Source: Myxococcota bacterium
Lineage (GTDB): Bacteria > Myxococcota_A > UBA9160 > UBA6930
Assembly (NCBI GenBank): GCA_965223705.1
Contig: OZ245015.1
Location: 864,001-928,000, forward strand
Length of the DNA: 64,000 nucleotides
Direction: 5' to 3'
A model generated the notes under the pieces. That model ran no database searches. It saw nothing but the letters and a program-made list of their open reading frames with translations, and was not told the DNA's origin. The translations under genes and the position numbers were made by a program. Shown piece after piece: positions 4,085-36,525 of the stretch. The first letter of the stretch is position 1, and each line of letters begins with the position of its first letter.

Positions 4085-4096
4085 GGCGCGTCGCCG

Positions 4097-12710: not shown

Positions 12711-12711
12711 C

Positions 12712-13894: not shown

Positions 13895-14713
13895 CTAGTC
13901 GGTGAGCTGTGCGCGCAGCGCATCATCGACGTCCGTGAGCTCGAGCCGGTAGTGGCGCCGAAGGCTCCGCGGAACCTGTCGGCTCCGGAGACAATCCGCG
14001 AGAAACGCGGCGAAGCGACGTTCTCCGAACCGGCGCATCAAGTGGTCCACCGCCGCGTAGGACGTCAAGTAAGCGGCTCCGGCACCACCTGCACCCAGGC
14101 TGGAGAAGGACTGCGCGCCGAGCTGGTGGAGACTCGGGAGCCGCCCCGCTCTTGCGACTCGGGCGAGATAGCTCCACTCGGCGCCCGACAAACCGCGCTT
14201 GCCGAGGGACCGATGAGCGAACCATTCGGCCAGACCCTCGTTCAACCAGCCTGGGACCGAGAAGGAAGCAGGCGCGGCTTGGTCCAATGCAGCGTGGACG
14301 AACTCATGATGGAGCACGTGGAGCAGGGCAGCGTCGATGCGCGTACCGCCCCGGACGCAAATCACCCCCCGAAAAAAACCAGCCGCCTGAAAGCGGAAGA
14401 GGCTCGAGAACTCGGCGTCGAAACGTTGTGGATCGTATACGTACACCGAGATCGGGCGTTGGGGTCGGACGCCAAACCGTGCGCCGAAGGCATCGTAGGC
14501 CGACTCCAGACCGTCGAGCACGCCGAGCTCGAATCGTCGGGTGCCGCGGTGGCCGGAATAGTTGTCGATCGCGACGTCTTGACGCAAGACGAAGTGACGC
14601 GATCTCCGCTCGGAAAACTCCCCGTCGGCGCCTCGGTTGCGAGCTTCCGCGGGGAGCGCCAGAGTGAGAAGCGCGAGCAGGACGGCTAGTCGGGTAGGCG
14701 CACCCCGTCTGAT
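13895..14713 (-). CDS. Secreted zinc metallopeptidase (peptidase MA-like); start probably non-canonical ATC
   Basis: HHEFVH and WLNEGLAE motifs; signal peptide ending PAEA; GGAGGAGG 6 nt upstream of ATC. Confidence 0.75.
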   Translation of the reverse strand: MRRGAPTRLAVLLALLTLALPAEARNRGADGEFSERRSRHFVLRQDVAIDNYSGHRGTRRFELGVLDGLESAYDAFGARFGVRPQRPISVYVYDPQRFDAEFSSLFRFQAAGFFRGVICVRGGTRIDAALLHVLHHEFVHAALDQAAPASFSVPGWLNEGLAEWFAHRSLGKRGLSGAEWSYLARVARAGRLPSLHQLGAQSFSSLGAGGAGAAYLTSYAAVDHLMRRFGERRFAAFLADCLRSRQVPRSLRRHYRLELTDVDDALRAQLTD

Positions 14714-17379
14714 GGGTCGCCTCCTCCGGCTCCCGGGGTCGCGGCCGAGGAGACGCCGGACAGGGCTCCTGTCACGAAGTTCAGCCCGCTGATGTCGCTG
14801 CTCCCGACGACGATGTCGGAAGCGAGTCCCTGAGTCGGATAAGCGCCACACGCTTCGCCAGGGTCGCAAATGAAACTGTCGTTGTCCGCATCGGTTCCGG
14901 CCACGATCTGGTAGGAGCCTGGAGCGACACCCGTGAACGTAAAGGGGTAGGCGCCCGCGTTCGCCGACATGGACTGGACCGCCACGACTCGACGGGTCGC
15001 GACTTCGATCAGGAGGACGTAGTGGAAGCCGGCATCTCCCGCGGAGGAGAGCGTACTCCCAACCTGCATGATGACGGGGATCTCGACCGTGTTTGCGGCG
15101 ACGCTTGCAATCGTGATGGTACCGGTGTAGATGCCGTCGCCAGCAGCGAGGTTCCGGTCGACGGTCACGGTGTAGGTCCCCAGTCCAGTGGCGTCGACGC
15201 TTTGTGGGGTCACGGCCAGCCAGTTGCCGCCGTCGTCGGTCATCGTTGCCGTTGAAGCGATCTGGAGACTGCCGCCGCCACCGTTGCTCACGGCGAGGTT
15301 CGTGGTGGTCGTGGCCACGCCGAAGTTGAGGGCCCCGGGACTTGCGACCAAGCTCGGTTGGGCCACCGGAGGCGGCGCGCCCGGATCGAGGTTGGCCGCC
15401 GCTACGACCGCTTGGTAGGCGTCGATCACACCGTGGCCGAAGAAGTCGTCGCGTCCGGGGACACCGAAGTCGCGCGTGATGCCTCCCGACGTCAACAAGG
15501 TGTCGAAGTCATCCGGAGAGACCATTGGATTGACGGAGCGCATCAGCGCAGCGACGCCCGCGACGTGAGGTGCCGCCATCGAGGTGCCCTGAAGAAACCC
15601 ATACCCCGCGACGATCGGCCCCCCGGCGTCGCTCGCCAGGGACGACAGCACGCCGTCCGGTGCGCCGTCCCCATTCAGGTCCGTAGCGAAGTCGCCGCCG
15701 GGGGCCGAAACGTCGATGGTCCCACCGTAGTTCGAGTAGGGCGCCACGGAGTTCGCCAAGGTCACGGCGCTGACGCTCACGACGCCCGCCATCGCGGCGG
15801 GGTAGAAGGGAGTGTTCGTCGAAGAGTTCCCGGCTGCAGCGATGACAATCACGCCCGCGGCACGCGCCGCCGTGACGGCGTCTTGCAGGCCTTGGGAGAA
15901 GCCCGGCCCGCCGAGACTCATGTTGATGACGTCCGCGGGCGTCGGCGGGACCGTCCCCGAATCGTTCGGGAGGCCGGCTGCGTACCGGATCCCTTGGATC
16001 AAGTCGTAGTCGGTCCCGCCACCGAAGCCCAGAACCCGGATCGGCATCACGGAAGCGTTCCAAGCGACACCCGCTACACCTTCGTTGTTGCCGGTCTGCG
16101 CGGCGATGGTTCCGGCGACGTGTGTGCCGTGGAAGGAGCTGCCGCCGGGCCCGAGGTCACCGGGATCTTCGGGGTCGGGGTCGATACCGTTTCCGTCGAG
16201 GGCGGTGGCCGCGCTCGAGATGAAGTCATAACCCGGAGCGATCATGTTCATGAGGTCCGGATGGTTCGACACGATTCCCGTGTCGAGGACCGCGACGATG
16301 ACGCCGCTCGCGGGCGGAATCTCGTCCCAGGCCTGGGGGACCGCGATTTGCGGGTAGTGCCACTGGCGATCGAAGAGGGGATCGTTCGGGGTGAGACTCG
16401 GTGCTCGGATGTAGTTCAAGTCCGTTGCCATCACGTCGGGCCGCCGGGCGAGAATCTTCGCCAACCGCTCCGTATCCCAAGCGGCCTGTACCTCGGTCTC
16501 CACTTCGCGGGAATCGAGGTCACAGGGAATGAGGTGGCCCATTCCGAGCGCTCTGAAGCTCTGGGTGCGCGCACGCACGTCGCCGGCTCGCACCAACATC
16601 TCGCGTCGCGGTTCGCCCGCGGCGACATCGAGGGACGCCGCCTGCATATCGTCCTGGACGTCGTCACTGCGGAGCGCGATGCCGGGTTCACGGCGCATCC
16701 GTACGATGACTTCGCCCGGTACGTAGAGGGGCGAAGGAGCGGCCACGCTGCTCGAAGTTGCTTGCGACAACACCAGGGTGTAGTTCGAAGCGCCGGCGAG
16801 CGCGGTAACGGCGATCAGATATTCGTCGGCGGCGGGGACGACCAAGGATTCGAACGGCGTCGCCGACGCCGAAAACGCGACGATCGTCGTTCCCGTCGCG
16901 TCGTAAAGAGCGAGATCGAGATCGTCCGTCACGCCGTCCCCGGCGATGAACAACGACACCATCTGATTCGCACCGAGCGAAACCCGGTAGAGATCCTGTG
17001 GATCTCCCGCACCGAAGGAACGGCCCGGAGGCCCCATATTGGGCAAGTTCACGTAACCCGTGAGAGAAGCCGGGTTCGTGATCTCTTGCGCTGTCGCCGC
17101 CGTGTTGTTGTCGTCCGAGGGCGCCGTGAAGTTATTCGTATCGCGGTCGGCAGCCGAACTCTGAGAAGCGACGACCGTCCCGGAAACCGAGAAGGACGCT
17201 GAGGCGGAGGTGGCGCTCGCCGCTTCGCCACCTCCGCCCGAGCCTCCTCCGCCACCGCCCCCACAGGCGACTAGGAGGAGAACCGCAAGCAAGCATCCGA
17301 GGATCCGGGTGCCGGCCGCCACGCGAGCCGGAGAAGTCCGGTTCGTACCGACCGCACCCTTCGAAATCACCACGCGCAC
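14686..17379 (-). CDS. Subtilisin-like S8 serine protease lipoprotein with PPC-like and beta-rich accessory domains
   Basis: Lipobox LVAC plus Gly linker; catalytic VLDTG, HGTHVAG, AAAGN, GTSMAAPHV. Confidence 0.93.
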   Translation of the reverse strand: MRVVISKGAVGTNRTSPARVAAGTRILGCLLAVLLLVACGGGGGGGSGGGGEAASATSASASFSVSGTVVASQSSAADRDTNNFTAPSDDNNTAATAQEITNPASLTGYVNLPNMGPPGRSFGAGDPQDLYRVSLGANQMVSLFIAGDGVTDDLDLALYDATGTTIVAFSASATPFESLVVPAADEYLIAVTALAGASNYTLVLSQATSSSVAAPSPLYVPGEVIVRMRREPGIALRSDDVQDDMQAASLDVAAGEPRREMLVRAGDVRARTQSFRALGMGHLIPCDLDSREVETEVQAAWDTERLAKILARRPDVMATDLNYIRAPSLTPNDPLFDRQWHYPQIAVPQAWDEIPPASGVIVAVLDTGIVSNHPDLMNMIAPGYDFISSAATALDGNGIDPDPEDPGDLGPGGSSFHGTHVAGTIAAQTGNNEGVAGVAWNASVMPIRVLGFGGGTDYDLIQGIRYAAGLPNDSGTVPPTPADVINMSLGGPGFSQGLQDAVTAARAAGVIVIAAAGNSSTNTPFYPAAMAGVVSVSAVTLANSVAPYSNYGGTIDVSAPGGDFATDLNGDGAPDGVLSSLASDAGGPIVAGYGFLQGTSMAAPHVAGVAALMRSVNPMVSPDDFDTLLTSGGITRDFGVPGRDDFFGHGVIDAYQAVVAAANLDPGAPPPVAQPSLVASPGALNFGVATTTTNLAVSNGGGGSLQIASTATMTDDGGNWLAVTPQSVDATGLGTYTVTVDRNLAAGDGIYTGTITIASVAANTVEIPVIMQVGSTLSSAGDAGFHYVLLIEVATRRVVAVQSMSANAGAYPFTFTGVAPGSYQIVAGTDADNDSFICDPGEACGAYPTQGLASDIVVGSSDISGLNFVTGALSGVSSAATPGAGGGDPSDGVRLPD

Positions 17380-17385
17380 GGGTTC

Positions 17386-18891
17386 CTAGACGGTGTTCCG
17401 AATCGGGGCGAACGAGATCAGACTGTCCAAATTCGCGCCGAGTCCGTGGGTGGGAAACAGCGTCGCGAACTCGCCCGTCCGATTCTGAAGCGCCAAGTAG
17501 TTCAGAACAATCGTCTCAGCCAAAAGGTCGACGTTGTTGGACGCCGGGGTTGCGCCGGTTTCGACGGACCCGTTCATTCGGTAGTGGCCAATCTGCTGCT
17601 GACCGGGAGCCGTTAGCTGCGGCCGACCCGCCGGGTCGTGAACGAAGAAGAACACGCCCGACGTTCCGGCGTTGTCGCCGCGCCAGGTGAACTTGCCTCG
17701 ACCCGCCTGACTGTTGTCGACCTCACCGTCTGAGAACACGGAACCGTCGGTGAAGACGTAGAGCATCAACTGCTGATTCAGGCGCGCCGCGTACTCGAGC
17801 ACGGCGCCCATCGCTTGACCGGCCTCGAAGTCGCGGATTTCGCCGGTCGCCCGGGTTCCGTTGTGGTAGTCGTAACCGCCGAATTGAATTGTACCCGCGC
17901 CAGCAAAGTCGCCGACCACGAGCTTCATCACCGAGGCTGTGCTCTCGAACTTGTTGTTATTGAGCTCAGCAGCAGTGAAGATGCTGTTGGCATCCCCGAC
18001 GATATTGAGATCCGCTAGCGGGTCGAGCAACGTCGGATTGCCGAAATTCGCGACCACGTCGGTCGTCTCGGTGTAGTTGCAGCCGATCAGATCGAGCAAC
18101 ATCTGCTCTTCCGTCATTTTCGACGTCTTCAGCGCCGAGATGGCTTCCGCCGCGCCCATCACGGCAGCCGCGTCGGCTTGGTCGAGCAGCTCGATCAGCT
18201 TCCCGGTGTCGACCAGCGCCGTCGCGTCGCTCGGACGATCGACTTTCGTCGGCCGCACCGCAGGATCGATCATCGACATCGGCGCACGGGAGCGCCCGCC
18301 GGATTCGCTGTTTTCCGTTCCGATCAAGGGAACGAGGCTGCCTCCCGCGCCGGCTCGATTGATGCCGTACATCGGGTTGTGCGGGTTGTTTCCCGTGTCG
18401 TTGTCCGATCTCGCGGCGATCAACGCGCCGTTCGTGTTGGCCAGCGTCGCCGGACTCGCCTTGTCCATGATGCCCAACAAGAACGGGCTATCGATGTGGA
18501 ACGGTAGTCCCAACGTTGTGCTGTCGATCTGGCCCGCGAGGTTCGGAGTTTGATCCGGTGGGAGACCCTGCAGCTGGTAACCGTCGACGCTCAGGAAATC
18601 CGTGGCACCTCCCATGCCGCCGCCGATGACGTTGGAGCCGACCATGTTGGCCCCACCACCGAGGTCGAAGCAGATGAACGGGATGTTGCCGTTGCCCACG
18701 CCGGACACGTTGCACTGAGCCGCCTGCGCCCGCGCCGCACGACCCTTGAAAAGGCCCAACAGGGAAGGCGAGGCGATCATGGCGGCACCCGACAGGAAGC
18801 CTTGCCCGAGAAATTCCCGGCGCGTTCGGGGCTTCGGATGATTTTCCAGCCGCAGGGGCGCGTTCGAATCGAGAAGCGGTTTTTTCGTCAT
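17386..18891 (-). CDS. Tat-exported protein, DUF1501-like
   Basis: Twin-arginine signal TRREFL...ARA; CFDLGGGAN, GGYDYH, VFTDG motifs recall DUF1501/DUF1552 proteins. Confidence 0.7.
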   Translation of the reverse strand: MTKKPLLDSNAPLRLENHPKPRTRREFLGQGFLSGAAMIASPSLLGLFKGRAARAQAAQCNVSGVGNGNIPFICFDLGGGANMVGSNVIGGGMGGATDFLSVDGYQLQGLPPDQTPNLAGQIDSTTLGLPFHIDSPFLLGIMDKASPATLANTNGALIAARSDNDTGNNPHNPMYGINRAGAGGSLVPLIGTENSESGGRSRAPMSMIDPAVRPTKVDRPSDATALVDTGKLIELLDQADAAAVMGAAEAISALKTSKMTEEQMLLDLIGCNYTETTDVVANFGNPTLLDPLADLNIVGDANSIFTAAELNNNKFESTASVMKLVVGDFAGAGTIQFGGYDYHNGTRATGEIRDFEAGQAMGAVLEYAARLNQQLMLYVFTDGSVFSDGEVDNSQAGRGKFTWRGDNAGTSGVFFFVHDPAGRPQLTAPGQQQIGHYRMNGSVETGATPASNNVDLLAETIVLNYLALQNRTGEFATLFPTHGLGANLDSLISFAPIRNTV

Positions 18892-18911
18892 GTTGAGTCC
18901 CCTTACTCCAG

Positions 18912-21098
18912 CTAGTGGACGCTCACAGCAGCGCTCGAGAGCACGGCTGAGCAGGCGGCCTTGACCACGGTTTCGGTACGTTCGGCGTCACACACTTCGG
19001 TCTGGCAGATGGCTGTGAGATCATCGATCAACGTGTTGATGATCGGTGAGACCTCGGCCATCGTCGGCTGGTTCGCGACGTTCGTCCCGATCATTCCATT
19101 TACCAGGGACGTCACGATGATGTTCCGCCCGTTGGCGTCAAACGCCGTCGCCGGAGCTTGATCGAACTGGAAGTTCGGAAAGAGAGCGTCCCGAATCGCT
19201 GGGGTTTCCACAGCGAGCTCGCAGTATTCGAGCGAGAGTTTCGCAATGGACACCTGGTGCGCCGCCGCGAATGATCGCAGATCAAACGAGACCGGTAGCG
19301 CCTGAGTCAGTTCCTCGAACGTGTTCGCGATGGCGGGGGTTGTCGCGTCGACACCGGTGAGTGCCGACATCGTGTCGTTGACGCGAGCGAAGTCGCGCAC
19401 ACCTTCGTTCGGGAAGACCTGGATCTCACCGACGAGCACCGGGGTCGGTCCGGTCGGGCTGTTGTCCGGATCGGGATCGGTGTAGTCGCCCAACGTCTCG
19501 AAATCGAGAGTAAAGACGTCCGTATCCAGGTCGACCATCTGGATGATCGAGCAAGTCGATGAAATCGTCTGACCTGACGACGTCACGGTGGCGTCGAGCG
19601 TTTGGAATGCCTGTCCGGAGACCGGGATAGTCCCATTGACGGCAATTTGCAGGTTCTGCACGCGGAGCCCCGGCGTGCTGGTCACGACCTTCGGGTCACA
19701 GAACAAATAACTGAACTCATCCAGCTGCTCGACGCGGAACTCGAGGTAGCTTCCCGCGCTGGCGTAGGAGCTGATGTCAAACCGCAAGACGAGCTTCTTG
19801 CCGACCCCTGCTGTGTAGTTCTGCGCAATCTGCGCGTCGGTCAGCGCGTATTTGTATACCGCGAGAAGTTGAATGCGCCCCATCCACTGGCGGTCGACAT
19901 TCGTCTCATCTCCGATGACAAACTGATAGTTCGGGTCCCAATTCCAAAGACGTCCGACTTCCTCGGCGAGGTCCGAGTCACCGGTGAATACGCCGTCGAC
20001 GTAGATTCGTCGCCCACGGTATTGGTCGTAAGTGAGAACGATGTGCTGAAGCGTCGCTTGGAGGTCTTCTTCAGCATCGGGCGTCTCGAGCGCGGGGCTC
20101 CCGTTGTCGTCGATCGCATTCGACAGGTTTCGGTTCCGATACACGATGTTGTAGTTGTTTTGGCCGAGCATGAAGTTTCGCAGCTGCGGCCCGTTCGAAT
20201 ACGTCACGATACGCGCGGGTCCCGTCTGATCCACATTGTCGGGGATTACCCAAGCTTCAACGGTGAACTGCTGGGTGCCGTTGGTCGGATCCGCGATGTG
20301 GTCGTAGAGTTTGCGGCTCGTGGTAGGCGTCGCCGCGGCCCGTCCGTCCATGATGTTGAGGCCCCAGTTGGTCATCCACGTCACGCCGTCGACGGGAGCG
20401 TCAATCATCAGATCCATCGCCGGGGCGACGTTCGAGACGTCTCGAACGACGGTCGACCCCTCGCCTTCCTTGAACGTGTAGTAGGCGATGGCGTTCTCCA
20501 TATAACGGAGGTTTCCCGAATCCTCGGTTCCGTCGTCGAGCGTCAGAGAGTTGCTCGTAATGCCATTGACTTGCGTTCCACCGGAGCCGAACTGGATCAG
20601 ACTCGCCCAGGCCTCGATCGCGGCCTGCATCGTGGCGCCGTCAGTGATGCAGTCGCTCCAGCAGTAGTGGAGATCCGCAACCAGACGCCGTACGAGGCGC
20701 GACGCTCCGGGGTCCGAAAAGTTGACTTTCTGATTGTCGACGACCGCGTTGAAGCCCGTCGTCATGTCGGGGTGCGCGATGTGCGGCGTGCCGGGTCCCG
20801 CGCCCGCGTGACAGGTCGTGCAGTTGGTCGTGAGAAGCGGCTGAACCGTCGAGCCGAACGCTTGGATCTGCTCGGCGAGGGAGACGCCGGCGCTTCCAGA
20901 CCCCGGCGTCGAGTTCAACGAACCCGACACAGAGGAACCCGCGACGCCTCCGTCGCCACCGCCGCCCGAGCTACCGCAGGCGGCGGCCAGCCCACCGACG
21001 GCGGCTAGGCCAACGAGTAGCGGGATACGAGAAGCGAGTCTACGCAATCGATCTGCGAGAGAAATGGTCATGGTTCTTCTCCGAGCGGGGGGACGCAT
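18912..21098 (-). CDS. Lipoprotein with monoheme cytochrome c domain, LamG/ConA-like domain and Cys-containing C-terminal domain
   Basis: LAAAC lipobox, CTTCH, FTVEAWV...HIVLTYD...IYVDG...WMGRI..LAVYKYALT LamG pattern. Confidence 0.82.
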   Translation of the reverse strand: MRPPARRRTMTISLADRLRRLASRIPLLVGLAAVGGLAAACGSSGGGGDGGVAGSSVSGSLNSTPGSGSAGVSLAEQIQAFGSTVQPLLTTNCTTCHAGAGPGTPHIAHPDMTTGFNAVVDNQKVNFSDPGASRLVRRLVADLHYCWSDCITDGATMQAAIEAWASLIQFGSGGTQVNGITSNSLTLDDGTEDSGNLRYMENAIAYYTFKEGEGSTVVRDVSNVAPAMDLMIDAPVDGVTWMTNWGLNIMDGRAAATPTTSRKLYDHIADPTNGTQQFTVEAWVIPDNVDQTGPARIVTYSNGPQLRNFMLGQNNYNIVYRNRNLSNAIDDNGSPALETPDAEEDLQATLQHIVLTYDQYRGRRIYVDGVFTGDSDLAEEVGRLWNWDPNYQFVIGDETNVDRQWMGRIQLLAVYKYALTDAQIAQNYTAGVGKKLVLRFDISSYASAGSYLEFRVEQLDEFSYLFCDPKVVTSTPGLRVQNLQIAVNGTIPVSGQAFQTLDATVTSSGQTISSTCSIIQMVDLDTDVFTLDFETLGDYTDPDPDNSPTGPTPVLVGEIQVFPNEGVRDFARVNDTMSALTGVDATTPAIANTFEELTQALPVSFDLRSFAAAHQVSIAKLSLEYCELAVETPAIRDALFPNFQFDQAPATAFDANGRNIIVTSLVNGMIGTNVANQPTMAEVSPIINTLIDDLTAICQTEVCDAERTETVVKAACSAVLSSAAVSVH

Positions 21099-21123
21099 GA
21101 ACGAAGTGGCGAGTGGAGCCTGA

Positions 21124-22287
21124 CTAGTTGCCCATGCAGTAGGTTGCGGTCTCGGCGAAGACCCGTTTCATGCTGTAGGCGTTCTGTTCGAACACGTCCG
21201 CGATTCGGTTGACCTCAGTGATCTCGTCGGAGGTCTGAGGCTCCCGGAAGCACACCTGCTCGAACACCTTCTGAACCTGACACAGGGAAAATGCGCGACT
21301 CGAAGCGATCTCCACGCCCAGGCTCTTTGCGCCGAAGCCCGAAGGCTCGGGCCCACGCCAACCGAGGATCGCGTTGGGTCCCTCACGCCAGCGGTTTTCC
21401 CATCGGTTGTCCTGCGTCACGTAACCCGGAGGGAACGCGTTCGCGTTGATGAGGTGCTTCGGTTGAACCATGCCGCGCGTGTGGATGACGCGTTGCAGAT
21501 CCGCGTCCCACTCAAAATACGCGAAGGCGCCCGCCAAGGGGTCCATCCCGCTGTGGCAACCGCTGCACTGGTTGTGAAACAGCTGGCTGTCCCCGCCGGG
21601 GCTCCGACTGACGTCTTGGCGGATCCAATCCACGGATCGCGTGATGTCCTTGAGCTCTTCGAGGTCGCGGCACAAGTAATTGACTGCAATGAAGCGCAAC
21701 ATGCGCCGGTTCGTGCCGGCACTGAAGAACGCTTCCCCCGCGCCGCGCGTCGTGATGACACCGGCCGTCTCCGAACTCATCAGCTGGCTTCCGGGAAGAC
21801 TCGATTGCGCCACCGGGACGAGCATCGCCGGGTCGCCGAGGTCGACGCGCTGATCCTCGAGCTGTCGGTAGTGCAGGTTGTCCGTATGGGAGTAGGGCGC
21901 GTTGACGACACCGGGTGCTCCGACGTAGACGACGTCTGCCGACAGCACGTCCGTGAAAGGCACATCGTCACGGATGAGGCCGATCACTGTCGCCGTGTAG
22001 TCCGTGAGCTCGCCGAAGACCGAGCGCTCTTCGTTTGTCCAAGGCGTCACAAAATTCTTCAGTGCGCCGCGGTAGAAGTCCGGGTCGCTCATCGCGATAT
22101 CCGCGGCTTGGAGAGGCTGGTTCGTGATAAGGCCTGCCATCGCCGTGAGCGTCGCCTCGCTCGGCGGAGTTCCCACCAAACGGTCGTGCATTTTCTTCGC
22201 TTGCTCGCGCGGCCCGGCGAACGAAGCTGTCGCGAGGCCAGCGAACGCCACCATCGCCACAATCCAAGGTTTGGATCGATGGATCAT
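21124..22287 (-). CDS. Secreted heme c protein (CSGCH..MDP, planctomycete-cytochrome-like)
   Basis: Signal peptide ending ASFA; QCSGCHSGMDPL; C-terminal YSMKRVF. Confidence 0.78.
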   Translation of the reverse strand: MIHRSKPWIVAMVAFAGLATASFAGPREQAKKMHDRLVGTPPSEATLTAMAGLITNQPLQAADIAMSDPDFYRGALKNFVTPWTNEERSVFGELTDYTATVIGLIRDDVPFTDVLSADVVYVGAPGVVNAPYSHTDNLHYRQLEDQRVDLGDPAMLVPVAQSSLPGSQLMSSETAGVITTRGAGEAFFSAGTNRRMLRFIAVNYLCRDLEELKDITRSVDWIRQDVSRSPGGDSQLFHNQCSGCHSGMDPLAGAFAYFEWDADLQRVIHTRGMVQPKHLINANAFPPGYVTQDNRWENRWREGPNAILGWRGPEPSGFGAKSLGVEIASSRAFSLCQVQKVFEQVCFREPQTSDEITEVNRIADVFEQNAYSMKRVFAETATYCMGN

Positions 22288-22680
22288 CTTGAAGTTACCC
22301 ACGCCTAGGCCTCCCATGATCTGACCTCTTGTCAGAGGAGTCGCTTTCCCAACGCGGCGGACACAGGAGACAACATCGGACGCGCTGTTTTCGCCGCGCG
22401 TGGCAGCGCTCACCGCAGTTCCACAGCAAACGACCGCAGTTCGTAGGACGGGCGCACCGCAAGGAACGGCAATCCGTAGGACGGTGTTCCGCATGCGTCG
22501 ACACCACGTGCGGAGTTGACTCGAGAAATCCCGCATTGCGTCCGGGGCAAACCTTGTCGCAGGCACATATCCCACGGGGTCGAAGACGGAGAACTTCTTC
22601 CGAACAGCTAGGGAAGCCGGAACCGCCCCTCTTCGCATACGCGTGTGCGGAGCGGTGTTCCTATATAGGGAAGGCTTCTC

Positions 22681-24909
22681 ATGCCGAAGCGATGGTTGGC
22701 ATTCTTCCTTCTGATAGGCGCTTTCAGCGTATTGCTAGCGAGCCCCTCACAGAGTGGTGAAACCGCGAGCCTCCACGAGGGAGCGGTTCACGAAGGACAG
22801 CCGACCGTCCGCGCGCAGCTCGTTGTGCATCCCGACGACGATTCCGGCCATCGGATCGGTGTCCTGTTCGACATCGCTCCGGGCTGGCACATTTACTGGA
22901 AGAATCCAGGTGAGTCGGGCCTCGCAACCGAAGTGGATTTCACCGTCGCAGGGGCGACGGTCGCGCCGCTCCTCTGGCCGACCCCGGAGCGGTTCGCAGA
23001 CGCCGGCACGAACTTCGATACGTATGGCTACACGGGGAGCGTGCTGCTCCACAGCGTGGCACTTCCCGAAGATGCGGGCTTCGTCCCGACGACCGTGGCG
23101 GCGGAAGTCGCTCTCGTTTCGTGTAAGGACGCCTGTATTCCCGATCAGTTCACCTTGAGTGGTGACGTCACGACTCTACGGGCAGCGGACCCGGACGCCG
23201 TTCGCGGCGTCTTTGCACGCGCGAGCTCTTCGCTGCCTCTCGCCCCGAAAGTCGCCGGCGTGCGCGTCGAGCCTTGGATGTCCCGCGACGGGGTTCGCCC
23301 GAGCGAACGCGTCGATCTCGGTTGGGCGATCTATCCGATGGACCCGTCGGAGGCTCTCGACGCCCAACTCGACGCGGTCGGATTCTTTCCGGAGAAAGTG
23401 TCGGGGCTAAAGCTCGAAGAGATCCGAGTCGCGCCTCATCCGGCCTCGTCGGGAGCCCTGTGGGTTTCGGCGAAGATGCTGGCCTCCACGAAGCCGCTCA
23501 CCGAGATGCAGCTCCTTCGCGGCGTTCTAAAGCTCGATGAGAAACGCTCTATCGCGGTCGAGTTGCCCGTCTCACGAGTCGGCCCGGAGGTCGCGACGAG
23601 CGCATTGGCGTCGCCCTGGACGACGAGCGCGAATCCCGAAAGCGGCGGTGCGTCGTGGGTGTGGATGCTGCTTTTCGCTTTCGTCGGTGGATTGGTCTTG
23701 AACCTCATGCCCTGCGTCTTGCCCATCCTCGCGCTGAAATCGTTCGCGGTCATGGAGATCGCCCAGGCGCGCCGCGGCGAAGCGTTGCGCCAGGGAGCCG
23801 CCTACACCGCGGGGATCCTCGGCTCCATGTTGCTACTCGCGTTCGCCGTCGTCGCGCTGCGACAAGCGGGGACCGCCGTCGGCTGGGGCTTCCAACTGCA
23901 GGAACCCGTGTTTCTCCTCACCGTGAGCGCGTTGTTGTTGCTCTTCGCCTTGAATCTCTTCGGCGTGTTCGAAGTCGGTTCCCCTTCGGCGCTGGCGAGT
24001 GTCGGTGCCGAAAAGAGCGGGGCGACACGGAGCTTTTTCGAGGGGTTCCTGGCCGTCGCTCTCGCGACGCCCTGTTCGGCCCCGTTCCTCGGGACCGCCG
24101 TCGGCTTCGCGTTCACCACCGGAAACGCGGCGACGATATCTGTGTTCCTGTGCGTCGGTTTGGGACTGGCCGCGCCGTTCATGGCGATTTCCGCGCTGCC
24201 GAACCTGTCCCGCCTGCTCCCGAAGCCCGGCCCATGGATGGTCCACCTTCGGACGTTCCTCGGATTCTGCCTGCTCGGTTCGGTGGTGTGGTTGTTGTGG
24301 GTTCTCGGCCAGGTGACAGCGGTCGATGCAGCACCGCAAGCGCTCGTCTGGTTGCTGCTGTTGTCCGTCTGCGCCTGGTTCTACGGACTCGGTCAAAAGG
24401 CCGATACCGGTCGGATGCGACCCGCCTTGATTGCGTTGGCGATCGGAGCCTTTGTCGCCGGCCCCGGCTTGATTCGCGCAGAACGGAGTGATCCCAGCGA
24501 GGCCAGGGTGCACGCATCCTCCGACGAAGCGCGCGATGTCGCCTACACACCCGAACGGCTAGCGGAGGGGCTCGCATCGGGTCGTCCGGTGTTCGTCTAC
24601 TTTACGGCGGACTGGTGCGTGACGTGCAAGGTGAACGAGCGGCGCGTTCTTTCGACAGATCGGGTGCGCGCCGCCTTCGCAGAAGGTGACTACCGCGTTC
24701 TGCGGGCCGACATGACGCGGCGTGATCCCGAACTGGTCGCGACGCTCGCTCGCTACGGTCGGGCTGGCGTGCCGCTCTATCTCCTGTTCCGGCCCGAAAG
24801 CCGCGATGAGCCGACGATTCTTCCCGAGCTCCTCCGCCAAGACGATGTCTTGGCGGAGTTGCGCGCAACTCGCGTCACAACTGCTTCCGACGTGCCGACC
24901 CGACTCTAG
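22681..24909 (+). CDS. dsbD: DsbD-family thiol:disulfide interchange protein (N-domain, TM domain, thioredoxin)
   Basis: GWHIYWKNPGESG, SCKDAC, LNLMPCVLP, ATPCSAPF, PKPGPWM, FTADWCVTC. Confidence 0.9.
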   Translation: MPKRWLAFFLLIGAFSVLLASPSQSGETASLHEGAVHEGQPTVRAQLVVHPDDDSGHRIGVLFDIAPGWHIYWKNPGESGLATEVDFTVAGATVAPLLWPTPERFADAGTNFDTYGYTGSVLLHSVALPEDAGFVPTTVAAEVALVSCKDACIPDQFTLSGDVTTLRAADPDAVRGVFARASSSLPLAPKVAGVRVEPWMSRDGVRPSERVDLGWAIYPMDPSEALDAQLDAVGFFPEKVSGLKLEEIRVAPHPASSGALWVSAKMLASTKPLTEMQLLRGVLKLDEKRSIAVELPVSRVGPEVATSALASPWTTSANPESGGASWVWMLLFAFVGGLVLNLMPCVLPILALKSFAVMEIAQARRGEALRQGAAYTAGILGSMLLLAFAVVALRQAGTAVGWGFQLQEPVFLLTVSALLLLFALNLFGVFEVGSPSALASVGAEKSGATRSFFEGFLAVALATPCSAPFLGTAVGFAFTTGNAATISVFLCVGLGLAAPFMAISALPNLSRLLPKPGPWMVHLRTFLGFCLLGSVVWLLWVLGQVTAVDAAPQALVWLLLLSVCAWFYGLGQKADTGRMRPALIALAIGAFVAGPGLIRAERSDPSEARVHASSDEARDVAYTPERLAEGLASGRPVFVYFTADWCVTCKVNERRVLSTDRVRAAFAEGDYRVLRADMTRRDPELVATLARYGRAGVPLYLLFRPESRDEPTILPELLRQDDVLAELRATRVTTASDVPTRL

Positions 24910-25013
24910 TTCGGGGGGATTGGCCCGCAACGAGTCGTCGATCCGTGAGCGCGATCACGCGCTCTCCGCGCGCCCGATCGATACATCAAACACCCTGTAG
25001 TTCGGAGCGTTTC

Positions 25014-25616
25014 ATGACACCCGGATCCCGCCGCGCCCTCGTGCGCTCGTTCGTGTTCTGTTCGACGATGGCTTTCTTCCTCTCCGTGAGTGGCGGTTCA
25101 TTCGCCATAGATCGAGGTCGGCCGGCGCCGAAGTTCACCGGCCCGTCACTCGACGGGAGCGGAAAGCTCTCGCTCAAGCAATATCAAGGACGGGTCGTCT
25201 ACGTCGATTTCTGGGCGTCCTGGTGTCCTCCCTGCTTGAAGTCCCTGCCCGTGCTCGATGAATTCCAGAAGGAGTTCGAGGATCAGGGTTTCCAGGTTCT
25301 CGCGATCAACGTCGACAAAGACGTCGAGGCGGCACGCGAGTTCTTCGCGGAACGCGGCGCGAGCTACCCGAGCTTGTCCGACCCCAAAGGTCGGCTGCCG
25401 CGACAGTTCGGCCTCGAGACCATGCCGACGTCGTATCTCATCGATCGAGAAGGACGCGTGCACTGGATTCACGAGGGCTTCAAGAAGAAAGACGTCGAGA
25501 CGATCCGCACCGAGATCAAGGCGCTTCTCAAGAGCTCGGCTCCGCCCGAGACGTCGACCTATCCCGCCAAGCGGTCGCCGAAATCGGCGCGTCAGTTGAA
25601 GCGGGAGCAGCACTAA
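25014..25616 (+). CDS. TlpA/ResA-family periplasmic thioredoxin
   Basis: VDFWASWCPPC, MPTSYLIDREG. Confidence 0.92.
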   Translation: MTPGSRRALVRSFVFCSTMAFFLSVSGGSFAIDRGRPAPKFTGPSLDGSGKLSLKQYQGRVVYVDFWASWCPPCLKSLPVLDEFQKEFEDQGFQVLAINVDKDVEAAREFFAERGASYPSLSDPKGRLPRQFGLETMPTSYLIDREGRVHWIHEGFKKKDVETIRTEIKALLKSSAPPETSTYPAKRSPKSARQLKREQH

Positions 25617-25849
25617 TGAAGCGCTTCGCCGTCATGTCTCTTCTCGCGTGTACGACGTTTGCGCTCGCCGCCTGTCAGGCTCCGAAAATCGGAGGCGTCA
25701 AACCCTGGGAGCGCGACATCCTCGCGAAACCCGATATGGCGTGGGATCCCGATCCCCAAGAAGCCGCTCTCCGGTCCCACATCTTCTTCAGCAAAGAGGC
25801 CGCGACCGGCGGCAGCGGTGCGGGTGGGGGCGGATGCGGCTGTAACTAG
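25616..25849 (+). CDS. Small lipoprotein, DUF4266-like
   Basis: Lipobox LAAC, VKPWER..LA, SKEA, C-terminal GGGCGCN; translationally coupled (TAATG). Confidence 0.85.
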   Translation: MKRFAVMSLLACTTFALAACQAPKIGGVKPWERDILAKPDMAWDPDPQEAALRSHIFFSKEAATGGSGAGGGGCGCN

Positions 25850-25900
25850 TCCGCCGGAAAGCGTCTCGACCCCAAAGCCCTCGCAAGACGGAGCCCCCTC

Positions 25901-27205
25901 ATGAGCCAGGCACGCAGCCTACGTCGATTGGCACTGCGCCGCGATAAGAAACGAAACCGCAAGGGACACTCAGTCCCCAAGCCTCGGAGTTCGGCGCCCG
26001 AAAAGCATCGCCGTTCGTTGGCCGCGCTCACCGCTGGCGCACTCGCACTGCCGGGCCTCGCGGGACCGGCGGGCGCCGACGCACCGTCCGAACGGCCCAG
26101 CGCGAGCTACCGCTTCTCGACGTACCAGGAGGACAAGATCGATTCTTCGAACTTGGCCCCGGGAAGCGAGGACGAGCGCTACGAAATCGATACGCACCAA
26201 TTGCGGTTTTCTTCTCCGCTGAGTTCCAAGATCGATTTCTCACTCGATGTCGTGCACGAAACCATGAGCGGCGCTTCGCCGTGGTTCGTCCAGGAGGGGC
26301 CGAACGGTGAAGCCCTCCAGGTCATGAGCGGTGCGACGATCGACGAAGAGCGAACGGATTTCCTCGGAAAGCTGAACTACTTCCTCGACAACGGTCGCGT
26401 CTCGTTTCTCGGGGGTGTATCCGATGAAAAGGACTACCAATCGCTGAACGGCGGGCTCGAATGGGAACGTCATTTCAACGAAAAGAATACGACGCTGACC
26501 ACCGGTGTCGGTCTTTCGTTCGACGAGATCGAGCCCACGGATGCCGACCTCTTTGCGACGCGCGTTTCCAGCGAGGACAAAGAGAGCTACTCGGCGTTTA
26601 TCACGTTGTCGCAGATCTTGAACCGCCACTCCGCGATTCAGTCGACCCTGTCCTACCAGAACAGCAATGGCTTCTTATCCGACCCGTACAAGCTGATCTC
26701 TGTAGGCGGCGTGAACCTCGCGGATTCGAGGCCCGACGATCGCAACATGCTGGCGTGGTTGACACGCTATCGGCGCCACTTCGAGAAACTCGACGGTTCG
26801 TTCCACGCCGACTATCGGTTCTACATCGACGATTGGGATATCAATTCGCACACCGTCGAGTTGGCCTGGTACCAGAACCTATTTCGAACGATCAAACTCG
26901 TCCCGAACGCGCGCTACTACAGCCAGAGTGAAGCCGACTTCTACGCGCCATTCCTCTCGGTCTTGCCGAGTGACGGCTACGCTTCGAGCGATTATCGGTT
27001 GTCGCCGTACGGCGCGATTTCGTACGGAATCCGCGCCGAAACGACCTTCCGCGGGTTGTTCGGCGGTCGGCAGGATTGGACGGCCATCCTGTCGTTCGAT
27101 CGATACGACGCCGACGCCGACTACTCGATCCAGAGCGTTGGCACGGAAGCGCCGGGACTGGTGCAGTTCAACGTTCTCTCCTTCCGGATCAAGGCCGACT
27201 TCTAG
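25901..27205 (+). CDS. DUF3570-like outer-membrane beta-barrel with two candidate flavinylation motifs
   Basis: MSGAS and MSGAT, GFLSDPY, YRFYIDDW.I.SHT, RYYSQSEADFY, SSDYRLS, C-terminal Phe. Confidence 0.8.
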   Translation: MSQARSLRRLALRRDKKRNRKGHSVPKPRSSAPEKHRRSLAALTAGALALPGLAGPAGADAPSERPSASYRFSTYQEDKIDSSNLAPGSEDERYEIDTHQLRFSSPLSSKIDFSLDVVHETMSGASPWFVQEGPNGEALQVMSGATIDEERTDFLGKLNYFLDNGRVSFLGGVSDEKDYQSLNGGLEWERHFNEKNTTLTTGVGLSFDEIEPTDADLFATRVSSEDKESYSAFITLSQILNRHSAIQSTLSYQNSNGFLSDPYKLISVGGVNLADSRPDDRNMLAWLTRYRRHFEKLDGSFHADYRFYIDDWDINSHTVELAWYQNLFRTIKLVPNARYYSQSEADFYAPFLSVLPSDGYASSDYRLSPYGAISYGIRAETTFRGLFGGRQDWTAILSFDRYDADADYSIQSVGTEAPGLVQFNVLSFRIKADF

Positions 27206-27206
27206 G

Positions 27207-28157
27207 ATGGAGCCGAGGCGGTATCCCTTTAAGGCGATGGGGAGCCCCTGCGAGCTTCACCTCTACGGGAAGACGGCCGCCGATTGCGATGCCGCAGAAG
27301 CGCTCGCCCGGACCGAAATCGATCGGCTCGAGGCGAAATTCTCCCGGTACCGGGGCGACAGTTTGACGGCGAAGATCAACGCGAGTGCCGGCGATCCCTC
27401 GGGAGTCGAAGTCGACGAAGAAACCGCAACGCTCCTCGACTACGCCGACACGGCTTTTCGCGAGAGCGATGGCGCGTTTGATGTCACCTCGGGAATCCTC
27501 CGCCGGGTATGGGACTTCAAGTCCGGCCGCGTACCCAGTCGCCGAGACGTGAAGGCGCTCCTACCCATGGTCGGCTGGCAGCGCGTTCGCTGGGAACGCC
27601 CCAGACTCGTACTCCCGAAGTCCGGCATGCAGGTCGATTTCGGCGGATACGTCAAGGAATACACGGCGGACCGCGTCGCTGCACTGCTGCGAGAGGCCGG
27701 TGTGGAAAGCGGCCTCGTGGACCTGGGCGGCGATCTGGCCGTCGTCGGACCGCACCCGGACGGGTCGGCTTGGCGTGTAGGCATTCGGGATCCGCGTGCG
27801 AGAGGTCGCGCCATCGCACAAGTCGCACTCGCCGGAGGCGGGTTGGCGAGCAGCGGCGACTACGAGCGCTTCATCGAAATCGACGGAACGCGATACGCCC
27901 ACATACTGGATCCGCGGACCGGCTGGCCGGTGACTTCGCTTGCTGCGGTGTCGGTGGTCGCAGATCATTGCCTCGTCGCAGGCACCGCGAGCACGGTGGC
28001 GATGCTGCTGGGAGAGCGGGGCGGATCGCAGTGGCTTGAGGAGCTCGGTCTCCCTCATGTCCGTGTCGATCAACACGGCGAAGTGCGGGGCTCTCTGGCT
28101 CCATCGGCGCGAGCTCTTACGGCGCTGCGTTCGCCGGCACTTCCGGTTTGGCGATAA
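27207..28157 (+). CDS. apbE: FAD:protein FMN transferase ApbE
   Basis: FKAMG, AFDVT, DFGGYVKEY, DLGGD, ASSGDYER, HILDPRTG. Confidence 0.93.
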   Translation: MEPRRYPFKAMGSPCELHLYGKTAADCDAAEALARTEIDRLEAKFSRYRGDSLTAKINASAGDPSGVEVDEETATLLDYADTAFRESDGAFDVTSGILRRVWDFKSGRVPSRRDVKALLPMVGWQRVRWERPRLVLPKSGMQVDFGGYVKEYTADRVAALLREAGVESGLVDLGGDLAVVGPHPDGSAWRVGIRDPRARGRAIAQVALAGGGLASSGDYERFIEIDGTRYAHILDPRTGWPVTSLAAVSVVADHCLVAGTASTVAMLLGERGGSQWLEELGLPHVRVDQHGEVRGSLAPSARALTALRSPALPVWR

Positions 28158-31026
28158 TCCTCGCGACGTAGCCTCCCGAGGACAGCGCGTTCACCGCGCC
28201 CGCCGCGTCGCTGAGAGTCTCGTACGGCGACAAAACCACATCGAAGCGCTTCTCACCTTGCCATTCCCACGGGACGACGACACCGCTTCCGTCGGGGCCG
28301 GATACGGCTTCGGCGACATCGGACGCCTCGTCGCGATCGGTGTAGGTGCCGACCAACACCGCGAAAGGCCGCTCTCGATCGAGGGACAACCCTTCGAGCC
28401 GCGCGAGGTTCCGCTCGAAGCCCGCGCGCTGGCGTGCGGAATCGGCCAGTTGTTCGATATCCCCGCGGAGCGCCCGCGCCCGGACGGCTACGACGAACTG
28501 ATCGTCGACCTCCGTCGAAGTGGTCGAGCGGAACAAGAACCCGAGCAAGGGAATGTTCATCAGGAACGGAACGCCCGAAGCGGTCTCGATTTGTCGTTGG
28601 TCTTTCGCCAGCGCGACGATCGCGTACTCATCGCCGAACAATCGGATCGAGGTCTCGACGGCGCGCTGTGCGAGCGACGGACCGAGGTCTTGGTTGCCAC
28701 CCACGAGGGAGTTGATCACGGACGTCTGCTCGATCAGAAGATCGAGTCGCACCGAACCTTCTTCTCCGGTGTAGGGGGTGACCCGCAAGCGCAGGCCGAC
28801 GTCCTGCCGCTCGATGTCCTGGGTGGTTTGGAGTTGTGCGAGGTTTGCGCTCGCCTCGCTGCGCTCGACGGGTATGGGAACGTTTGCTCCGGCGAACAAC
28901 TCGTGCTCTTCACCCGCGACCATCAGCAGGTTCGGGCGCATGAGGACGCGTCCCCGAAGCTCTTGTTCATCCGCCGTGACGACGAACGATTCCCGCGGAA
29001 CCTGAACCGAAATCGGGACGCCCCCCGCCGTGACGATGGGAACCACTAGAGGTGCGCGCGTGAAGCGCACCGCACCGCGGGGCCCTCCGGGCGTACCGGG
29101 CCGGATGAGGCCGCCTCCAGACGGGTTGAGCAGCAGCGTTCCGAGAACGTCTTGCGCATCGGTCGGCCGCGAGATCGGAGTGAACGCGTCGAATCCGAGG
29201 GAGAGCTCTCCGGAGCTCGTGAGTTCGAACACCAAGACTTCGAGGCGAATGCGCGCCGGCGTGCGATCGAGCTCGGCGACGAGATCCGAGAGAGCGCGGA
29301 ACGTTTCGTCGTCGCTGCGGATGACCAGCGAGCGCGTCGGCGCATCCACCGTGACCTGAAAGTCTTCCCCTCGCAGGGCCGGACCGGCGTTCGCGAGAGC
29401 GCCGTCGCTCCCGCTTCCCGCGGCGATCGCCTCGAGCTCTTTCGCGATCTGTTCCGGATCTGCGGCGCGGAGCCGAAGCACGTGGAGGCTCCCCCCGCCG
29501 CGAACCGGTTGATCCAACCTCCGCAGGAAGTCGCGAACTTCAACGAGGCGCGTCGGGGTGGCGCGGACCAGCAAGGCGTTCGTTCGTTCGTCCGGGAAAA
29601 GTTCGGGCACATCGCGCGTTTCGTCGCGAAAACTTTCGTCGATCAGGTTCGCCGCGTCTGTCGCGTCCCGATGTCGCAGCCGAACGACGGCGAACTCGGT
29701 GCCCGATGACTCGTCGAGCGCCCGAATGATGGTGAGGATGCGGCGGAGCTGCCCCGCGCTCCCCGACAGGATCACGCTGTTGGTCGGGGGATAGGGCAGC
29801 ACGATCAACTGCGCGCCGAGCCAACCGCGAAGGGCGTCGACGACGTGCCTCGGAGAAACCGACCTCAGTTGAACGAGCGTCGTCACCGGCGCATAGCCCG
29901 AAAGGGAGTCCGCTTCTTCCCACGGGCCCGATGTCGTGCCGGCCTGGATCGGCAAGATCTTGTAAGCGCCGCCGGGTGTCAGGAGAGCGGCGTAACCGCG
30001 CATGAGGAGCGCCGCATGGAGCAACTCGAGGGCCTCGGCCCGTGTGATTCGCCCGCCGGCGGATACCGTGACCGCGCCTTGAAGGGAGTCGTAGATGAAG
30101 CGTTCGCCCGTGATCTCGGCGATCGCTTCTACGACCTCGACGAGCTCGGCATCTCGGAATTCGAGGGTGACGCCGGTTTCCGCGAGTCGCTCGCGTGCGA
30201 ACGCAACCGCCAGGATGGCCCCGCGCCGGGTGATCTCGGGCGGTTCCCGACCGGCGCGTTCGATGATGATCCGAACGGTCGGTTCCTCGATGTCGGCGCG
30301 TTCAAATACGCTTATCGAGGCGATTCCGCGCCCGATTTCGGGGGCGATGCGACCGGGGGCGCTCGGGTCGAGCGTCGTCCCCGGGAAATCGATGACGACG
30401 CTCGAAGCGGTTCCATCCTCGACTTCTGCAGTGACGCCGCGCTCAGCGAAGACGAGGATCCGCTCGAGCTCGTCTCCCGTTTCCAACTCGATCCCGTAGA
30501 TGCGTGTCGGTTTCGAGCTCGCGGAGACCGCGGGAAGCGCCGGCCTCGCTGTCTCGGGCGGACCGGCCGAAACCTGGGGAAGGGCGGACGTGGTCTCGAT
30601 TTCCCCCAGCACCACCACCCACCCCTCACCCGTGGGTTCGAGTCGCCAGCGACGAAACGGATCACGGGCGCTGCCCCCATCGACAACCACACGCGTGAAC
30701 TGGGCGTGTCGCCCGACGCGTACCCTTCGGGCCACGCTTCCGTCTCCCGAGACGCGCGTTCGTGTGACGCGGGTCTCGAGCTCGGGGAGATCGATGACGA
30801 GGCGCGTCGGATTCTTCAGCGCGAAGACGCGGGGTCGAGGGGGGAGGCCGTCGGTCTTGAGAATGATCCGCGGCTTGTCCGGAACGGCTCCGTCGATCGC
30901 AACGTCGACGAGCGCCGTGGCCTCGGTCATCACTTGCGCCTCGGCGACCCAAGGAGCCGCGAAGCAAAGCGCACAGGCGATGATCGCCGTCCGGATCAAA
31001 AAAACCCCCGAATGGGTGCATCCCAT
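28117..31026 (-). CDS. GspD-like secretin with N-terminal AMIN domain(s) and C-terminal SPOR-like domain
   Basis: NPTRLVIDLP..VRVG (AMIN); LEFRDAEL (N0); PTNSVIL, DERTNALLV, DAPTRSLVI (N1-N3); ERQDVGLRLRVTP and VPFLMNIPLLGFLFRS (secretin). Confidence 0.85.
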   Translation of the reverse strand: MGCTHSGVFLIRTAIIACALCFAAPWVAEAQVMTEATALVDVAIDGAVPDKPRIILKTDGLPPRPRVFALKNPTRLVIDLPELETRVTRTRVSGDGSVARRVRVGRHAQFTRVVVDGGSARDPFRRWRLEPTGEGWVVVLGEIETTSALPQVSAGPPETARPALPAVSASSKPTRIYGIELETGDELERILVFAERGVTAEVEDGTASSVVIDFPGTTLDPSAPGRIAPEIGRGIASISVFERADIEEPTVRIIIERAGREPPEITRRGAILAVAFARERLAETGVTLEFRDAELVEVVEAIAEITGERFIYDSLQGAVTVSAGGRITRAEALELLHAALLMRGYAALLTPGGAYKILPIQAGTTSGPWEEADSLSGYAPVTTLVQLRSVSPRHVVDALRGWLGAQLIVLPYPPTNSVILSGSAGQLRRILTIIRALDESSGTEFAVVRLRHRDATDAANLIDESFRDETRDVPELFPDERTNALLVRATPTRLVEVRDFLRRLDQPVRGGGSLHVLRLRAADPEQIAKELEAIAAGSGSDGALANAGPALRGEDFQVTVDAPTRSLVIRSDDETFRALSDLVAELDRTPARIRLEVLVFELTSSGELSLGFDAFTPISRPTDAQDVLGTLLLNPSGGGLIRPGTPGGPRGAVRFTRAPLVVPIVTAGGVPISVQVPRESFVVTADEQELRGRVLMRPNLLMVAGEEHELFAGANVPIPVERSEASANLAQLQTTQDIERQDVGLRLRVTPYTGEEGSVRLDLLIEQTSVINSLVGGNQDLGPSLAQRAVETSIRLFGDEYAIVALAKDQRQIETASGVPFLMNIPLLGFLFRSTTSTEVDDQFVVAVRARALRGDIEQLADSARQRAGFERNLARLEGLSLDRERPFAVLVGTYTDRDEASDVAEAVSGPDGSGVVVPWEWQGEKRFDVVLSPYETLSDAAGAVNALSSGGYVARIIAKPEVPANAAP

Positions 31027-31092
31027 TCGGGGGCGAGGTTACCGGGCTCGACTACGAGGGCCCAGTCTCATCCGTCACAAACGCTCGAGCTT

Positions 31093-32491: not shown

Positions 32492-32528
32492 ACGAATCCC
32501 ATCCCGTGGGCGTTTCGGGCGACTCGCA

Positions 32529-33917: not shown

Positions 33918-33926
33918 GGAGAGTCT

Positions 33927-35960: not shown

Positions 35961-35970
35961 GAGTCGCCCG

Positions 35971-36516: not shown

Positions 36517-36525
36517 GGAGCCATC

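Follow-up and report, generated by a model that had tools for sequence, protein, structure and literature searches.

A conserved gene trio encoding a CxxCH protein, a LamG lipoprotein, and a predicted phosphatase-fold protein lies opposite a DUF3570 flavinylation arm or, in one branch, a PCC3 cluster

Electrons from the cytoplasm are carried outward by DsbD, and 285 flavinylation clusters with DsbD, typically accompanied by ApbE, DUF3570, DUF4266, and thioredoxin, have been described, besides 316 more such clusters without DsbD (Meheust 2021, PMC8238504). FMN is attached at both motifs of a Chlorobium DUF3570 protein by its ApbE, the function of which was left open, and substitution between flavin and cytochrome is a described pattern (PMC8238504). 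The terminal partner of these DsbD systems is named only as VIT1, in 25 clusters, and the main text of that paper, the supplementary tables of which may list neighbours resembling those described below, holds no mention of a barrel, LamG, DUF1501, or DUF1585. DUF3570 does not occur in the available text of Huang 2024 (10.1101/2024.03.13.584918), and three of the genes concerned are named in passing as neighbours in Haft 2023 (10.1101/2023.06.07.544157). PCC3 is defined by a membrane protein of about 300 aa with two WX3HX13H motifs and one SGXXG motif, and has been modelled as an inward electron carrier, opposite to DsbD (He 2017, PMC5566968). PSCyt/PSD proteins are found in modules with DUF1501/DUF1552 (PMC5615132). 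The acceptor of DUF3570/DUF4266, the role of PCC3, and the role of the PSCyt/DUF1501 modules are each called unknown in the available text of this literature (PMC8238504, PMC5566968, PMC5615132).

This paper describes a locus in a 64-kb window, i.e., the whole stretch of DNA that was analysed, in which three genes designated A, B, and C (the trio) are divergently oriented from a right arm encoding DsbD, TlpA, DUF4266, DUF3570, and ApbE (Table 1). All ten genes and the divergent spacer were confirmed as real, in agreement with the gene calls, the motifs, and the spacer of approximately 390 bp in an initial annotation of this DNA. Alternative starts are available for gene A, including an in-frame ATG at 22317 that leaves a spacer of 363 bp, and its longest open reading frame begins at 22638. 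No sigma-70-like site and no Rfam match were found in the spacer.

Table 1. Features of the divergent locus and their positions in the window.
Feature	Position	Strand	Remarks
HExxH (MA-clan-like) peptidase	13895-14869	-	Peptidase_MA_2, E 3e-7, 30.9 bits, under the cut-off of 32.4
S8 protease	14686-17379	-	E 1e-56; lipobox
Gene C	17386-18891	-	Tat signal, twin-arginine RRxFL; predicted alkaline-phosphatase/sulfatase fold
Gene B	18912-21071	-	CxxCH-LamG lipoprotein; lipobox LAAAC, one CxxCH
Gene A	21124-22287	-	Secreted, one CxxCH, Sec-type signal; first gene of the trio
Divergent spacer, presumed shared promoter region	22288-22680		393 bp, from the likely ATG of A (22287) to the ATG of DsbD
DsbD-family transmembrane thiol reductase	22681-24909	+	DsbD_N, DsbD_TM, and thioredoxin domains
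TlpA/ResA-like thioredoxin	24945-25616	+	WCPPC; likely start 25014
DUF4266 lipoprotein	25616-25849	+	PF14086, E 3e-24; C-terminal CGC (GCGCN)
DUF3570, probable outer-membrane beta-barrel	25901-27205	+	PF12094, E 4e-72; SGAS and SGAT
ApbE flavin transferase	27207-28157	+	PF02424, E 9e-78

The right arm is already published as the DsbD system of Meheust 2021 (PMC8238504), with which it shares the same five genes in one cluster, the two [S/T]GA[S/T] motifs of DUF3570, and the CxC of DUF4266. Matches to DsbD_N, DsbD_TM, thioredoxin, Redoxin, DUF4266, DUF3570, and ApbE were all above the Pfam cut-off, which confirmed the families that had initially been assigned to this arm. The DsbD protein retains three cysteine pairs (148/152, 345/465, and 646/649), and the best-scoring models for TlpA were ResA and DsbE. 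Because two more DsbD_TM genes, a second apbE, and ccmF are present elsewhere in the genome of the window, the DsbD and ApbE copies of the locus look dedicated. The DUF3570 protein is probably an outer-membrane beta-barrel, as judged from its alternating hydrophobic strands, its C-terminal Phe, and weak matches of family members to OMP_b-brl (2 of 25) and Porin_4 (1 of 25). Barrel look-alikes were found in the ESM Atlas at 0.91, including one cluster with SlipAM in 19% of its members, and comparison of the DUF3570 profile with PDB sequences gave chance-level matches only.

Several neighbouring or related clusters were observed. A GspD secretin gene (AMIN, N0, SPOR) and a small beta-barrel gene at 28117-31860 (minus strand) converge on apbE, and this arrangement, which may reflect no more than synteny or may serve to export the trio, was seen again in some twelve related loci. 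The segment at 32003-37092 (plus strand) carries genes similar to an ExbD/TonB/ExbB set, the last of which has a weak MotA_ExbB match (E 0.001) and the others no Pfam match. Two extra DUF3570 clusters are present in the related genome G020 (loci L088 and L089), one DUF3570 being part of a 1003-codon frame with the motifs SGAT and SGAS, beside a DUF11/TSP3 protein.

Of 8,000 candidates scored, at least 7,971 proved homologous to gene A, the CxxCH motif of which was kept in 100 of 100 aligned relatives, with Met as the next residue in 99. Weak matches to PSD2 and PSCyt3 were obtained for 84 and 65 of 100 relatives, respectively (best E 3e-6), the gene A of the window stayed below the Pfam cut-off for PSCyt3 (13.5 bits vs 27), and 5 of 120 homologs had a precomputed PF07624 match. 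Gene A is probably a remote relative of PSCyt3 (DUF1588) and PSD2 (DUF1585), no scored member. Its predicted model (pLDDT 92) yielded no Foldseek match at E<=0.001 and a best Z of 5.0 over 48,161 chains, and its profile gave chance matches only against PDB sequences; the model is confident and lacks a clear solved-fold counterpart, which is no demonstration of a new fold. Gene B combines a cytochrome-c-like N-terminal domain (CxxCH and HxCxxxC), a LamG domain (Laminin_G_3, E 9e-19), and a helical C-terminal domain that may be PSD3/PSD5-like, and its residues C54, C57, H58, H105, C107, and C111 were invariant in 71 of 71 sequences. Invariant non-heme cysteines are carried by all three members of the trio.

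A twin-arginine signal and a position by a PSCyt-type gene are features of DUF1501/DUF1552 proteins. Gene C shares this type of feature, since its RR was invariant in 70 of 70 homologs and gene order puts it by a PSCyt-type gene. At the sequence level, gene C matched neither Pfam nor NCBIfam, DUF1501/DUF1552 was hit at E<=1 by 0 of its 70 diverse members, and its profile gave chance matches only against PDB sequences; DUF1501 was present in 45% of the members of look-alike clusters in the ESM Atlas at 0.92, which is weak evidence. On the basis of its model (pLDDT 88), gene C is predicted to encode an alkaline-phosphatase/sulfatase-fold metalloenzyme. Comparison with solved structures gave a best Z of 11.3 (rmsd 3.9, 217 aligned), all 50 of the 50 matches listed belonged to the AlkP superfamily, and the best Foldseek E was 3e-4. 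The core fold is like that of ENPP7 (5udy), choline sulfatase (7pth), and EptA (5fgn), with Z about 11 and 217-242 aligned, and the invariant Asp and His residues occur in the order expected for the AlkP superfamily, at an identity of 5-12% and with no subfamily standing out. Residues D165, D341, H343, D382, and D406 were invariant in 70 of 70 homologs with a mean column identity of 26%, D/E76 was found in 69 and T/S166 in 62 of the 70, and candidate metal and nucleophile positions were mapped by motif order alone. To our knowledge, no member of the alkaline-phosphatase fold needs electrons. The name 'general secretion pathway protein GspF', automatically given to the family in the ESM Atlas, was rejected as its function since the predicted fold does not fit. 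The fold of gene C and the PSCyt3/PSD2 likeness of gene A are both absent from the initial annotation. A locus scan for a distant gene C homolog returned one 1.7-kb contig. A predicted complex of A, the C-terminal domain of B, and C scored 0.83 and one control 0.65, a result neither for nor against such a complex.

The trio resembles the PSCyt/PSD modules with DUF1501/DUF1552, as presented in the available text of PMC5615132, in that it has CxxCH in a PSCyt3/PSD2-like protein, LamG, and an adjoining partner gene, and it may work like these modules without scoring as a member. Unlike those modules (PMC5615132), the trio splits these features over A and B, with matches mostly far below the Pfam cut-offs, it is tied to an electron-transfer arm, and its gene C falls outside DUF1501/DUF1552 in 70 of 70 members.

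Linkage of the trio to the right arm was analysed in a neighbourhood survey, in which 560 stretches encoding relatives of gene C were found and the best 80 were kept. Among these best 80 of 560, the order of the trio was fixed: wherever the DNA extended far enough, C was preceded by B (73 of 73 loci) and by A (68 of 68). In the same set, at least one arm gene was present upstream on the opposite strand in 60 of the 62 loci with about 10 kb upstream read (TlpA in 59 and DUF3570 in 57). Co-occurrence of the arms is far above chance, and the proposal of the initial annotation that they belong together is supported by the 60 linked loci, which go against the refuting case named there, a lack of any co-occurrence in other genomes. 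Within the same 62 loci from the best 80 of 560, DsbD was upstream in just 6, and it was therefore rejected as a fixed part of the unit; 52 loci had an HZS-alpha-like diheme lipoprotein and two small barrels instead, and DsbD and this HZS-alpha-like set were found together in 0 of 62.

Of the trio loci (again from the best 80 of 560 stretches), 65 were read for at least 4 kb past C, and 0 of these 65 encode the S8 or the Zn protease. A search of 40 related genomes for close relatives of the S8 protease (E<=1e-60) likewise came up empty, and both proteases were rejected as conserved parts. The S8 and HExxH proteases, the former starting 6 bp past the stop of gene C, are local neighbours outside the conserved unit, and their initial assignment as partners of the redox proteins does not hold. 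A PQQ-type alcohol dehydrogenase-family gene and an adjoining monoheme cytochrome c gene are located at 10944-13092 (plus strand), and this pair was not found beside the trio in the other loci surveyed.

The trio is also carried by cultured marine Marinobacter, Alteromonas, and Microbulbifer. Gene C was present in 41 of 300 scored gammaproteobacterial genomes, in two of these as a contig-end fragment. DUF3570 was encoded in 39 of these 41 C-positive genomes as compared with 34 of 259 C-negative genomes, although the genomes are kin and Fisher values overstate the co-occurrence; the 34 include the unpublished genome G082, and G262 was not scored for C. In 25 of the 41, DUF3570 was on the contig of C within about 12 kb. 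The gammaproteobacterial arm is without DsbD, and its DUF3570 partners mostly have degenerate motifs (S[SAG]AS and T[TS]AS) in which the last Ser is kept. TPR, MotA/ExbB, and ExbD genes flank several of these trio loci, and no close match to the motor-set TPR genes was found in the genome of the window. Trios without an adjoining arm were encountered at loci L006, L106-L110, and L114. At L109 (G159:C82), a divergent thioredoxin-like gene is located at 4049-4579, about 1.8 kb upstream of A, with no adjoining DUF3570. At L130 (G013:C27, 2407-5676), gene C is reduced to its last ~75 codons, abutting tlpA; genes A, B, and dsbD are absent at the locus, and DUF4266-DUF3570-apbE is still there.

The genome of the window and 40 relatives (41 genomes) were surveyed for what replaces the right arm. 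Gene C was found in 17 of the 41 and DUF3570 in 10, in each case on the contig of C and at most about 9 kb away; in one of these ten, G013, only a remnant of C is left; none of the 24 genomes without C encoded DUF3570. The 7 C-positive genomes without DUF3570 were exactly those that encode a 9-11-heme cytochrome and a SPOR/TPR/porin protein, neither of which was found in the other 34 of the 41 genomes, that of the window included. These seven genomes have a completeness of 85-97%, and one is a single contig. The cytochrome gene directly precedes A on the same strand in 6 of the 7, the seventh (G026) consisting of contigs of <3 kb. The divergent side, read far enough in four genomes (G005, G006, G008, and G014), encodes a porin, a 4Fe-4S/pyridine-nucleotide oxidoreductase, a 21-heme cytochrome, and a membrane protein; 21 CxxCH were counted in the cytochrome of G005, G006, and G008, and an ankyrin/Sel1 gene was also identified in the G005 cluster. 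Because the membrane protein has the PCC3 motifs (both WX3HX13H and SGXXG in G014, G005, and G006, and one of the two in the stretch read of G008), the slot that is occupied by DsbD-TlpA-DUF4266-DUF3570-ApbE in the window holds PCC3 in this branch.

In comparison with PCC3 as presented in the available text of He 2017 (PMC5566968), the cluster has the motif-bearing membrane protein, the 21-heme cytochrome, the porin, and a repeat-type multiheme cytochrome, whereas this second cytochrome has 9-11 hemes, as compared with a median of 34, and heads the trio genes. Its cytochrome and porin were 43-44% and 29-33% identical, respectively, to those of the cluster at L099, which was called PCC3 by features given in the available text of PMC5566968, not by the sequences of that paper, and the 9-11-heme cytochrome was 40-44% identical to the 68-heme L099 protein. 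No homology between DUF3570 and the PCC3 porin was detectable (probability 1.6%). Gene B of the PCC3 branch (L082 7821-13004; L083 8268-13718) codes for a protein of 1,700-1,800 aa or more that has gained a second CxxCH in its N-terminal part together with 6-7 Ig/cadherin repeats; this enlargement fits, and is no proof of, a surface-displayed complex.

The PCC3-linked C proteins formed one clade among the DUF3570-type ones (SH-aLRT 95) in a quick, midpoint-rooted tree from which 45 of 59 HZS-type rows were dropped and in which four PCC3 labels were set by hand from genome-level evidence, and the pattern therefore points to one swap event, not seven. The nesting of the PCC3 type within the DUF3570 type suggests the direction of the swap. 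Five further DUF3570-type relatives all encoded DUF3570 (four beside the trio), and 2 of the 5 also had an unlinked PCC3 porin. Among the Gammaproteobacteria, a PCC3-type porin was present in 18 of 41 C-positive vs 19 of 259 C-negative genomes, and none of the coordinates listed places it next to C. All three gammaproteobacterial C-positive genomes without DUF3570 (G047, G086, and G042) have a PCC3-type porin elsewhere, which could be chance because a PCC3 porin also occurs in 16 of the 39 genomes with both C and DUF3570. Exclusion between DUF3570 and PCC3 is not strict genome-wide. At L113 (G086:C1, 10435-17800), the trio is intact and the HZS-alpha-like gene is split in two; DUF3570 was not detected anywhere in G086, the PCC3-type porin of this genome is located 200 kb from L113, and an independent loss of the flavin arm is possible. 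A PCC3-like cluster at L098 (G042:C7, 6655-12859) has its cytochrome and porin genes each split across frames, which may be an assembly error, and the trio of G042 (L006) has no adjoining arm and no DUF3570 in its genome.

Both arms comprise a pyridine-nucleotide source in the cytoplasm, an inner-membrane crossing, and an outer-membrane barrel with redox cofactors, and both adjoin a trio with two heme motifs. The simplest shared function is electron delivery to those hemes; the odds that electrons of cytoplasmic NAD(P)H reach the trio hemes through each arm are about even. In the window, electrons would pass from NADPH and thioredoxin via DsbD, TlpA, and the CxC of DUF4266 to the two FMN on DUF3570 and on to the hemes of B and A, the flavins turning two-electron thiol chemistry into one-electron heme chemistry. 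In the swap branch, they would pass from a membrane-anchored FeS/NAD(P)H flavoprotein via the PCC3 b-heme membrane protein, the 21-heme wire, and the porin with its 9-11-heme cytochrome to the trio hemes. In both cases, the endpoint at the outer membrane would be an enzyme formed by the trio, in which LamG binds a polymer or surface and gene C contributes a metal site. This site may act on phosphate or sulfate esters, with redox state assisting or gating the reaction, the substrate being a guess. The exchange of the arm for a porin-multiheme cluster lends indirect support to the relay to heme proteins that had initially been drawn for this locus, although the DsbD step of that relay proved not to be fixed (6 of 62 loci). 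As a tentative extension, DUF3570 might be a heme-free, doubly flavinylated outer-membrane conduit that is interchangeable with a porin-multiheme wire, both feeding a surface heme/phosphatase-fold complex. Several findings go against electron supply: several trios lack an adjoining arm, DUF3570 and PCC3 both occur without the trio (in 34 and 19 of 259 genomes, respectively), G013 keeps the arm beside a mere C remnant, and most gammaproteobacterial DUF3570 proteins have degenerate motifs and no DsbD. The same holds for the derivation of the seven PCC3 genomes from one event, the lack of strict exclusion between DUF3570 and PCC3, the modelling of PCC3 as an inward carrier (PMC5566968), and the alkaline-phosphatase fold of gene C, no member of which is known to us to need electrons.

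It is unlikely, at some weight, that the right arm instead builds the trio. In this scheme, DsbD, TlpA, and DUF4266 would reduce and reshuffle the many cysteines of the trio proteins so that these can fold and receive heme, and the barrel would export the trio or anchor it at the surface, in the way Slam proteins act on lipoproteins. Such maturation is consistent with the invariant non-heme cysteines of the three proteins, with the best scores of TlpA against ResA and DsbE, with SlipAM in 19% of the members of one DUF3570 look-alike cluster, and with the TPR repeats of the swap-branch barrel, a TPR-repeat barrel being a Slam-like design. However, what arrives with the swap is a complete wire (b-heme membrane protein, 21- and 11-heme cytochromes, and FeS flavoprotein) without any thioredoxin. 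The genome of the window also encodes ccmF and further DsbD_TM genes, and two covalent FMN would be left unexplained. That the arms share a promoter only, respond to one condition (e.g., limiting metals or attachment to particles), and act side by side with no electrons passing between them is quite improbable, since linkage persists across two phyla through rearrangements (L115) and the multiheme gene of the swap branch is now in the trio's direction of transcription, directly before A; in favour of it, each arm occurs alone in some genomes, and the main text of PMC8238504 describes DUF3570 clusters with 0 mentions of LamG, DUF1501, or DUF1585.

The flanking TPR, MotA/ExbB, and ExbD genes of several gammaproteobacterial loci and the lack of DsbD in the arm of that group, as well as the modelling of PCC3 for electron uptake (PMC5566968), would also suit a unit that senses or takes electrons inward, or couples envelope redox to a TonB/Glt-like motor, without feeding a surface enzyme. 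This is very doubtful, as the motor-set TPR genes have no close match in the genome of the window and DsbD works outward (PMC8238504). Finally, the initial annotation had the relay reduce disulfides of extracellular proteins that are then cut by the S8 and Zn proteases; the S8 lipoprotein gene, immediately behind gene C, may be co-transcribed in this genome, but with either protease in 0 of 65 loci and no close S8 relative in 40 related genomes the scheme is refuted as a conserved function and hardly tenable for the locus itself.

A search of the literature, with subscription papers largely outside its scope, returned no description of the trio or of its link to either arm and no paper on the PCC3 swap, and the new content here consists of the DsbD-bearing form of the trio locus, the exclusion of the proteases, and the PCC3 swap. 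Gene A, with its confident model and no clear match among solved folds, is a target for structural work. Adjoining PCC3 in one branch and the flavin arm in others, the trio is a candidate acceptor for either arm, and the exchange also suggests a direction of electron flow; PCC3 by itself is no marker of iron oxidation. If DUF3570 is indeed a flavinylated conduit interchangeable with the porin-multiheme wire, and both feed a surface enzyme complex, DUF3570 clusters and PCC3 would share one job, which by extension would also be that of the planctomycete cytochrome/DUF1501 modules.
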